A stretch of 1,160 bases of DNA from Escherichia coli (lineage in GTDB: Bacteria; Pseudomonadota; Gammaproteobacteria; Enterobacterales; Enterobacteriaceae): the NCBI RefSeq assembly GCF_003334335.1, contig NZ_QOWQ01000119.1. The stretch is one strand, 5' to 3'. Both the position numbers and the translations under genes were made by a program. Under the pieces are notes generated by a model. It worked only from the letters and a program-made list of their open reading frames with translations, was not told where the DNA came from and ran no database searches. Of this stretch, positions 1-500 are shown in pieces (within the stretch, counting starts at the first letter, position 1; each line of letters begins with the position of its first letter).

Positions 1-201
1 CCATCAGAGCAGGCGTATCGCGTATGGCGTAAGACACCGGAGAAGGCTGCTGACCCGACACTGATTCGAAAGTTACCTGACGGAGAAATACGTCGTTACA
101 ACAGACGGCAGAACATAATTTGTCGTGAGAGCAGGAGGAGCGAAGTTATGCAGCGTGTGCTGGCGTTCTATCGGGGAAACTTTCAGGAGGTGATGGAGTG
201 A
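1..201 (+). CDS. 3' end of an upstream gene (C-terminal 66 codons in window, ...SEVMQRVLAFYRGNFQEVME*); product not recognised, presumed phage early protein
   Basis: Frame 1 is open from position 1 to a TGA stop at 199..201, while the other two + frames hit stops at 30..32 and 62..64. The stop overlaps the GTG start of the next gene (GTGA at 198..201). It is absent from the ORF track only because its start lies outside the window. I do not recognise the protein family. Confidence 0.55.
   Translation, partial: PSEQAYRVWRKTPEKAADPTLIRKLPDGEIRRYNRRQNIICRESRRSEVMQRVLAFYRGNFQEVME
185..190 (+). promoter_or_regulatory. Shine-Dalgarno (AGGAGG) for the DUF4406-like gene, embedded in the 3' end of the upstream gene
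   Basis: AGGAGG at 185..190 lies 7 nt upstream of the GTG at 198, which is near-optimal spacing. Confidence 0.7.
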
Positions 202-500
202 GGGTGAGAGTCTATATCGCCGGTCCAATGACCGGGTATAAAAATTTCAACCGTGAGGCGTTTCACAATGCGGAAGAGGTACTGAAACGGGAAGGGCATA
301 CCGTTTTAAACCCGGCAGTACTTCCGGACGGGCTGACTCAACCACACTACATGGATATTTGCATGGCAATGCTCCGTTGCGTGGATGCGGTTTACATGCT
401 GAAAGGCTGGCAGCAGTCGGCAGGTGCAAGGGCTGAGCTGGCACTGGCGGAGAAACTGGGCCATGCGGTGATTTTTCAGGAGGTGGGCAGTGAATATTGA
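198..500 (+). CDS. DUF4406 family protein (nucleoside 2-deoxyribosyltransferase-like fold), 100 aa, GTG start
   Basis: The N-terminus MRVRVYIAGPMTG...NFNREAF...GHTVLNP matches the signature I associate with DUF4406 / NDT-like small phage proteins (beta-strand, then a glycine-rich AGPMTG loop, then an aromatic FN..AF motif). The ORF is complete with a strong SD upstream, and the family normally begins right at the YIAGPMTG motif, which supports GTG 198 over the internal ATG at 228. Confidence 0.85.
   Translation: MRVRVYIAGPMTGYKNFNREAFHNAEEVLKREGHTVLNPAVLPDGLTQPHYMDICMAMLRCVDAVYMLKGWQQSAGARAELALAEKLGHAVIFQEVGSEY
478..483 (+). promoter_or_regulatory. Shine-Dalgarno (AGGAGG) for the small membrane-protein gene, embedded in the 3' end of the DUF4406-like gene
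   Basis: AGGAGG at 478..483 lies 6 nt upstream of the GTG at 490. Confidence 0.6.

Follow-up and report, generated by a model that had tools for sequence, protein, structure and literature searches.

In human DNPH1 (Rcl, 2'-deoxynucleoside 5'-phosphate N-hydrolase 1), the catalytic triad is Y24/D80/E104. The covalent deoxyribose-phosphate ester forms on E104, the phosphate is bound by S98 and S128', and the base lies between I29 and I76; a separate residue, E55, has been proposed to activate water (PMC10603095). MilB is a related characterised system (PMC4081090). Its phosphate-coordinating serine is S97, equivalent to S98 in DNPH1, and tyrosine versus phenylalanine at the first triad position tracks deoxyribose versus ribose preference in these two enzymes (PMC10603095). 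The nucleoside 2-deoxyribosyltransferases (NDTs) hold the 5'-hydroxyl by an Asp or Asn (Asp92 in the Lactobacillus enzyme), where the nucleotide hydrolases have small uncharged residues (PMC12884076). Among phage enzymes, DmtZ of Z-genome actinophages is an NDT-like dAMP hydrolase and deoxyribose-5-phosphate transferase of about 145 aa, covered by no Pfam model according to its authors; it has Asn in its triad, a change also tolerated in TbPDT, and is described as carrying the Pro after strand 2 that is typical of transferases (PMC12884076). In Z-genome phages it is fused or adjacent to a dUTPase-like dNTPase (PMC12884076), and an NDT of the Pfam family PF05014 has also been linked to dZ phages (bioRxiv 2025.10.22.683976). 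The effector of retron Ec86 is likewise NDT-like, and is another related characterised system.

The protein considered here belongs to the DUF4406 family (PF14359). A reading made from the DNA sequence alone (below, the sequence-only reading) had described its role in phages as not established, and the literature bears this out: full-text searches returned annotation mentions only for DUF4406 and no functional work on DUF4406, PF14359, or DUF1937, and no solved structure of any DUF4406 protein was found. Database labels for the family are mixed, including "nucleoside deoxyribosyltransferase," "deoxycytidylate deaminase," and "MazG-like." The gene itself is an ordinary, common prophage accessory gene, and the stretch of Escherichia coli DNA analyzed (1,160 nt from contig NZ_QOWQ01000119.1; hereafter the window) adds nothing over public annotation. 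The present analysis contributes a more specific functional prediction and notes that the enterobacterial clade is peculiar in having Cys for Asp.

Gene and prophage setting

The DUF4406 gene occupies positions 198–500 of the forward strand. Both its coordinates and its N-terminus are exactly those given in the sequence-only reading; the product begins MRVRVYIAGPMTG, and the complete 100-aa sequence is MRVRVYIAGPMTGYKNFNREAFHNAEEVLKREGHTVLNPAVLPDGLTQPHYMDICMAMLRCVDAVYMLKGWQQSAGARAELALAEKLGHAVIFQEVGSEY. The features of this part of the window, all on the + strand, are:

1..201, +: 3' end of the upstream DUF977 / Ren-like gene, stop TGA at 199–201 (RefSeq annotation; phrog_142, E=8e-18)
181..192, +: exact 12-nt repeat TTTCAGGAGGTG, copy 1, at the upstream gene junction (repeat search and shuffles)
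185..190, +: Shine-Dalgarno sequence AGGAGG, 7 nt before the GTG, within the last codons of the upstream gene (direct sequence reading)
198..500, +: DUF4406 CDS, 100 aa, GTG start, TGA at 498–500 (ORF list; Pfam PF14359; RefSeq CDS WP_021577230.1 at the same coordinates)
474..485, +: exact 12-nt repeat TTTCAGGAGGTG, copy 2, coding F-Q-E-V near the DUF4406 C-terminus (repeat search and shuffles)

The DUF4406 GTG overlaps the stop of the upstream gene (GTGA, 198–201), and the GTG of the downstream gene (490) falls inside the last DUF4406 codons. Because starts and stops overlap at both ends, the genes appear to be translationally coupled, and DUF4406 is one cistron of a tightly packed operon that is probably coupled in this way. 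The second copy of TTTCAGGAGGTG provides the ribosome-binding site for the next gene (GTG 490); two copies were found in 0 of 200 shuffles. A start at a second GTG (204), where many homologues begin, was set aside, since the spacing of the ribosome-binding site and RefSeq both favor 198. An RNA or regulatory reading of 198–500 was also dropped, because a search of the window matched no Rfam family and showed no promoter-like or terminator-like signals beyond shuffled expectation.

The whole window recurs at 100% identity in the chromosome of E. coli NCTC9112, inside a Rac-like lambdoid prophage integrated beside yccA. The order there is integrase, exonuclease, dicB, relBE, repressor/regulator, YdaT, DUF1376 replication initiator, replication protein P, DUF1627, DUF977, DUF4406, a frameshifted DUF4752, a hypothetical gene, ead/Ea22-like, hokD, RusA, an antiterminator-region gene, a methyltransferase, tRNAs, and lysis genes. 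The intact phage Rac-SA53 has the same arrangement, with the DUF4406 gene named "rac19." The gene thus sits in the rightward operon directly past the replication genes, a position that places it in the early region, as the sequence-only reading had supposed. No annotated MazG and no PurZ or Z-genome genes are present in the NCTC9112 prophage.

In a survey of 80 related viral contigs, all from close enterobacterial relatives, DUF4406 is co-oriented with its upstream neighbors in every case, and the downstream neighbors vary. This set was informative about gene position rather than about functional partners. A replication gene (O-like, DnaC-like, or DnaB-like cluster) is found within four upstream genes at 37 of the 69 loci where four upstream genes could be seen. 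Unrelated phages also carry DUF4406 in or beside replication modules: between polymerase/primase and helicase in BFK20, after DnaN in TIN4, and after a helicase in Mordred. The family is large, with 12,180 representatives of 50%-identity clusters (E<=1e-3), and tblastn places it in at least 584 phage genome records, mostly from Arthrobacter, Vibrio, Gordonia, and Mycobacterium phages. When 30 long (at least 179 aa) close relatives were scanned with Pfam, DUF4406 was the sole significant domain, so their extensions are either uninformative or gene-call artefacts.

Fold and predicted active site

Membership of the DUF4406 family and of the NDT fold is near certain. Residues 4–93 align to positions 2–91 of the 91-position Pfam model PF14359 (i-Evalue 8.2e-37), a significant and essentially full-length match in the profile search that the sequence-only reading had proposed, and the RefSeq name for the identical sequence (WP_021577230.1) is "DUF4406 domain-containing protein." The protein also matches PHROG phrog_355, labelled "nucleoside 2-deoxyribosyltransferase," at 2.3e-47. 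There is a weak Pfam cross-match to DUF1937 (2.4e-4), and the Pfam NDT model PF05014 stays below threshold (E=0.13, score 12.9). Neither NCBIfam nor the PADLOC defence models matched any of the four proteins of the window.

An AlphaFold2 model built with a 72-sequence alignment has a mean pLDDT of 93.7 and a pTM of 0.86. The predicted secondary structure is beta(4–8), alpha(15–31), beta(35–37), alpha(48–60), beta(64–67), alpha(75–87), beta(90–93), and the modelled protein is a minimal four-stranded version of the NDT fold, with a Rossmann-like parallel sheet and flanking helices. Foldseek searches of the PDB with this model returned NDTs of T. brucei, Leishmania, and Chroococcidiopsis, then DNPH1, BcmB, and MilB (E from 7e-5, TM about 0.7); DUF1937, MilB, NDTs, and DNPH1 are the nearest solved structures. 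The small Rossmann-like, NDT-related fold named in the sequence-only reading is therefore what the model predicts, and neither of the outcomes which that reading had listed as speaking against it, the lack of a family match or of a Rossmann-like core, occurred. By single-sequence search of the PDB, only 1t1j was found (E=1.3), a Pseudomonas aeruginosa hypothetical protein of DUF1937. This is a separate Pfam family and likewise a DUF, so the likeness adds no functional information.

The protein is a reduced form of the fold. The characterised enzymes have 130–160 residues, as against 100 residues and four strands here; DNPH1, MilB, BcmB, and BlsM are about 30–70 residues longer. The model lacks the C-terminal strand and helix by which a neighboring subunit completes the NDT/DNPH1 active site. 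In DNPH1 this strand and helical extension gives a second phosphate ligand from the partner subunit (S128'); in MilB the second ligand is R23. In the protein from the window the extension is absent. Conserved T/S12 and R19 lie near the loop and may be candidates for a second phosphate ligand; the R19 position is F or Y in the clade that carries Asp at position 55.

Among solved structures, the strongest tie by sequence profile is to the NDTs (PF05014): built from 72 relatives, the profile matches the T. brucei enzyme (TbNDT) at E=2.9e-5. The catalytic Glu, the Pro that follows strand 2, and YIAGP are features common to both. The family motif S-x-G-A-x-x-E aligns with DCGTAFE of NDT and with SPGTHxE of the CMP N-glycosidases BcmB and BlsM. 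In the NDT-like superfamily the nucleophile Glu stands in a (D/S)-x-G-x-x-x-E motif that follows strand 3, the triad Tyr or Phe ends strand 1, and the triad Asp (Asn in TbPDT and DmtZ) is on the helix preceding strand 3. DNPH1 itself is not significantly matched, and its hhalign equivalences (Y6=Y24, C55=D80, S74=S98, E80=E104) come with low probability (E=0.05). The numbering of the DNPH1 sequence used there fits the PDB mutant names Y24F and D80A/N. The placement of C55 at the triad Asp site agrees with its 8-residue spacing to the "xD" motif before strand 3, which is the same in NDT and DNPH1 sequences. The positions concerned, whose equivalences rest on profile alignments rather than three-dimensional superposition, are:

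213..215, +: codon of Y6, putative triad tyrosine (Y24 of DNPH1), in the YIAGP strand-1 motif (TbNDT and DNPH1 profile alignments)
312..314, +: codon of P39, in the near-invariant N38-P39 after strand 2; putative equivalent of the transferase Pro (LIPT in TbNDT) (profile alignment)
360..362, +: codon of C55, at the predicted position of the triad Asp (D80 of DNPH1, D72 of LlNDT) (hhalign against DNPH1; spacing)
417..419, +: codon of S74, invariant; putative equivalent of the phosphate-binding Ser of BcmB/BlsM/DNPH1 and of the Asp of true NDTs (alignments)
435..437, +: codon of E80, invariant; putative equivalent of the catalytic nucleophile Glu of the NDT superfamily (TbNDT, BcmB, BlsM, and DNPH1 alignments)

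Conservation was counted in 265 query-centered relatives and in a second sample of 120 centered on actinophage and jumbo-phage members. S74 is kept in 265/265 and 119/120, respectively, and E80 in 262/265 and 120/120 (382/385 overall). P39 (261/265), G9 (258/265), and N18 (251/265) are each present in 120/120 of the second sample. Position 6 is Y in 233 and F in 25 of the 265, and Y in 120/120 of the second sample.

From these alignments the active site reads as a nucleophile E80, an orienting Y6, a phosphate selector made of S74 and the GPM(T/S)G loop, a base sandwich of M11 and Y51, and a transferase-type P39. S74 appears to match the motif Ser of the nucleotide N-glycosidases DNPH1, MilB, BcmB, and BlsM, and tyrosine at position 6 implies a preference for 2'-deoxy substrates. 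The comparison with NDT active sites that the sequence-only reading had suggested thus holds in part: E80 and Y6 probably correspond to the catalytic Glu and the triad Tyr, but the triad Asp appears to be replaced by C55 and the 5'-hydroxyl-binding Asp by S74. The same hybrid of hydrolase and transferase features, an uncharged phosphate pocket together with the transferase Pro, is found in DmtZ, which was judged here by its published description.

Position 55 and MazG-like pyrophosphatases

Among the 127 relatives that share 60% identity or more with the query, 126 have Cys at position 55. The residue there in the actinophage/jumbo-centered sample (120) is D in 77, A in 25, and G in 16; the proteins of NihilNomen, Ariel, Nebkiss, TIN4, DismalStressor, Lizalica, EE36phi1, and RTH11 all have D. 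The enterobacterial clade, as aligned, carries a Tyr-Cys-Glu site in place of Tyr-Asp-Glu. With Cys at this site, the clade does not keep the canonical acid/base step, and its chemistry or its substrate may differ. This is the main ground for caution over an enzymatic reading of the protein from the window.

The Asp-bearing members, for their part, have links to dNTP pyrophosphatases. The gp166 protein of Mycobacterium phage NihilNomen joins DUF4406 (1.6e-21) to a PRA-PH/MazG-like domain (1.8e-4) in one chain. In the related Ariel the two halves are separate genes two apart, with gp162 the DUF4406 protein and gp164 a match (2.2e-66) to the C-terminal half of phrog_12019, the family of the fusion. 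In Nebkiss the gene immediately after DUF4406 (gp126) is MazG-like and belongs to a different PHROG. The Xanthomonas jumbo phage RTH11 has DUF4406 right beside a MazG-like gene, with a dCTP deaminase two genes downstream, an order kept in two divergent metagenomic jumbo phages. In Tsukamurella phage TIN4 a pyrophosphatase is four genes from DUF4406. The BFVD structures include DUF4406-like folds within proteins named "dATP/dGTP diphosphohydrolase N-terminal domain-containing." For the DUF6378 fusion partner, neither a PDB sequence search nor NCBIfam gave an identity. All MazG-linked members examined carry Asp at position 55. Counting fusions, adjacent genes, and near neighbors together, the pairing of Asp-bearing DUF4406 with a MazG-like dNTP pyrophosphatase recurs in three or more phage lineages, as neighborhood observations without a statistical baseline. 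The pairing of DmtZ with a dNTP-hydrolysing partner is a parallel to that of DUF4406 with a MazG-like one. So is the human DCTPP1/DCTD/DNPH1 route.

Proposed function and alternatives

The best explanation, to which we give an even chance, is that the protein is an NDT-superfamily enzyme acting on a 2'-deoxynucleoside 5'-monophosphate via a covalent E80 intermediate. Its activity would be that of an N-glycosidase or of a phosphodeoxyribosyl-transferase, and it would be expressed alongside the replication genes. We infer the substrate class, the covalent chemistry, and the physiological role, taking DNPH1, MilB, and phage DmtZ as the models for the mechanism. The 5'-phosphate would be gripped by the invariant S74 and by the GPM(T/S)G loop that follows strand 1, M11 and Y51 would sandwich the base, and Y6 would orient the invariant E80. 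Attack of E80 on C1' would then release the base and leave a covalent deoxyribose-5-phosphate–enzyme ester. Water would resolve this ester in an N-glycosidase, and another base would do so in phosphodeoxyribosyl transfer. For members with the full Tyr-Asp-Glu triad, coupling to MazG-like pyrophosphatases suggests a two-step breakdown, dNTP to dNMP and then to base and deoxyribose-5-phosphate, which would remove or reshape particular deoxynucleotides while phage DNA is being replicated. A dNMP-directed N-glycosidase or transferase could give a function to thousands of phage genes; if borne out, the prediction would correct the mixed DUF4406 labels and add a phage counterpart to the nucleotide-sanitising logic of human DCTPP1/DNPH1.

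Other readings account for some of the same observations. NDTs lead the protein's Foldseek matches among solved structures, its YIAGP motif and the Pro that follows strand 2 recur in the T. brucei and Leishmania enzymes, and many annotators of phage records use the name, all of which would suit a genuine nucleoside 2-deoxyribosyltransferase (EC 2.4.2.6) that swaps bases between free 2'-deoxynucleosides for salvage. This is nevertheless distinctly unlikely: the PF05014 match is insignificant (E=0.13), the database labels are homology transfers rather than assays, the protein lacks the C-terminal segment of the T. brucei, Leishmania, Chroococcidiopsis, and Lactobacillus NDTs, and their 5'-hydroxyl-binding Asp is replaced by the invariant Ser74 (by the rule in PMC12884076). 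Methyltransferase genes lie beside or near DUF4406 in several unrelated phages and at some enterobacterial loci, so that the protein might act with DNA methyltransferases, clearing methylated nucleotides or a methylation by-product, or on DNA itself as a glycosylase of the polymer. Methyltransferases are common in phage early regions, however, and the neighbor observation has no baseline; the sole one annotated here is ~6 kb downstream rather than adjacent. We know of no NDT-fold enzyme acting on polymeric DNA, and a role of this kind is very improbable.

With C55 in place of the acid/base Asp, A or G at this position in other members, and a very small chain without a second-subunit lid, the protein might be a non-catalytic nucleotide-binding protein that sequesters or senses a nucleotide without cleaving it. 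Against this, clades with different residues at position 55 retain E80, S74, P39, N18, and Y6 with little or no variation, and loss of the Asp does not by itself mean loss of catalysis, because DmtZ and TbPDT function with Asn at the same site (PMC12884076) and E55 of DNPH1 is proposed to activate water, so that the Asp is not the sole route to turnover (PMC10603095). We consider pure binding quite unlikely. Another reading is a counter-defence or pool-sanitising enzyme with the same glutamate chemistry, in which the open, C-terminally truncated pocket could admit a larger and unusual substrate, such as an immune-signalling or toxic nucleotide (ADP-ribose-derived signals, chain-terminating or deaminated nucleotides) or NAD-related molecules. 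The protein matches no PADLOC defence model, in a comparison directed at known anti-phage effectors with NDT-like or TIR domains such as that of retron Ec86 and ThsB; its similarity to TIR is below that to NDT, MilB, and DUF1937. The conserved Ser/loop pattern suits a simple 5'-phosphate, no anti-defence neighbors were identified, and no support was found in the literature. This too seems unlikely.

Beside the proposed dNMP-directed enzyme, a narrower suggestion concerns the Cys55 clade only. With its Tyr-Cys-Glu site and no partner-subunit lid, it may have been re-purposed for a nucleotide that is non-canonical or derived from host immunity (deaminated, chain-terminating, or signalling), whose base it could destroy or exchange. 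We regard this as distinctly unlikely; if true, the clade would be a widespread, unrecognised phage counter-measure or pool sanitiser in about a fifth of E. coli genomes. With a cut-off of at least 80% nucleotide identity, a near-identical DUF4406 gene is carried by 1,210 of 5,426 complete E. coli genomes (~22%).

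The repeat and the genes of the window

The features considered here are the following:

1–201: C-terminus of the upstream DUF977 protein, matching phrog_142 ('Ren-like exclusion protein') at 8e-18
181–192 and 474–485: exact 12-nt direct repeat TTTCAGGAGGTG, one copy on either side of the DUF4406 gene
490–806: frameshifted DUF4752-family gene, with a T-run at 658–661
760–1074: 104-aa ORF matching phrog_3126 at 3.7e-64

Two copies of TTTCAGGAGGTG were not found in any of 200 shuffles. Both copies code for F-Q-E-V close to the C-terminal end of the protein ahead, and each also contains the ribosome-binding site of the following gene. 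Of 80 related loci, 31 have the exact 12-mer upstream of DUF4406 and four have it downstream; the contig that is identical to the window is the only one with both copies. The repeat may represent a recombination joint in the mosaic, or merely a common coupling signal.

The DUF4752-family product has a predicted membrane helix close to its N-terminus. The T-run has four residues in the window vs. five in the homologues from two related loci (L007 and L022), and the missing T breaks a single ORF of ~105 aa into two (490–729 and 684–806); RefSeq likewise marks the gene as frameshifted. The identical deletion is found in a metagenomic contig (L006), which suggests that it is not merely a read error.

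The phrog_3126 ORF includes an acidic, Cys-containing stretch, DMDGCDSCGQDCGADMTEDPDGDY, and is named 'putative zinc-finger containing protein' in some Stx-phage records. [quoted passage not shown]

The 25 kb around the window in the NCTC9112 prophage include several genes for toxins or host interference (dicB, relBE, a YdaT-family toxin, and hokD), together with a gene of the TerB family and three that encode tRNAs. With several pseudogenes among its genes, the prophage may be partly decayed.

DUF4406 neighbors and fusions in other phages

In individual instances from several unrelated temperate phages, DNA methyltransferase genes (C5, N6/N4, or Dam-like) adjoin DUF4406 or are one gene away. 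These loci are LESphi3, Aeromonas phage 56, Mycobacterium phage Brujita, three further related loci (L103–L105), and the enterobacterial loci with the methyltransferases of neighbor cluster 23.

Fusions of DUF4406 to DUF6378 (PF19905) are recurrent, in four metagenomic proteins of ~200 aa each (P0340, P0341, P0354, and P0366). The DUF6378 domain, of ~80 residues (1.2e-18 in P0341), is dubiously labeled 'phosphofructokinase' in PHROGs; neither a PDB sequence search nor NCBIfam gave it an identity.

Database names and a jumbo-phage gene block

Three actinophage genes, Kepler gp54, Nebkiss gp126, and Lizalica gp27, carry the name 'deoxycytidylate deaminase' or 'MazG-like pyrophosphatase' in their database records. 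In tblastn, DUF4406 covers the greater part of each product (95–122 aa), as confirmed by PHROG for Lizalica gp27, and the deposited names probably derive from fusion proteins or weak profile matches.

In jumbo phages (RTH11 and related loci L097–L098 and L100–L102) there is a conserved block consisting of a 268–279-aa gene, MazG-like in RTH11, followed by DUF4406 with an N-terminal extension of ~70 aa, a 204–217-aa gene of unknown function, and a dCTP deaminase. This arrangement suggests a deoxypyrimidine-handling module.
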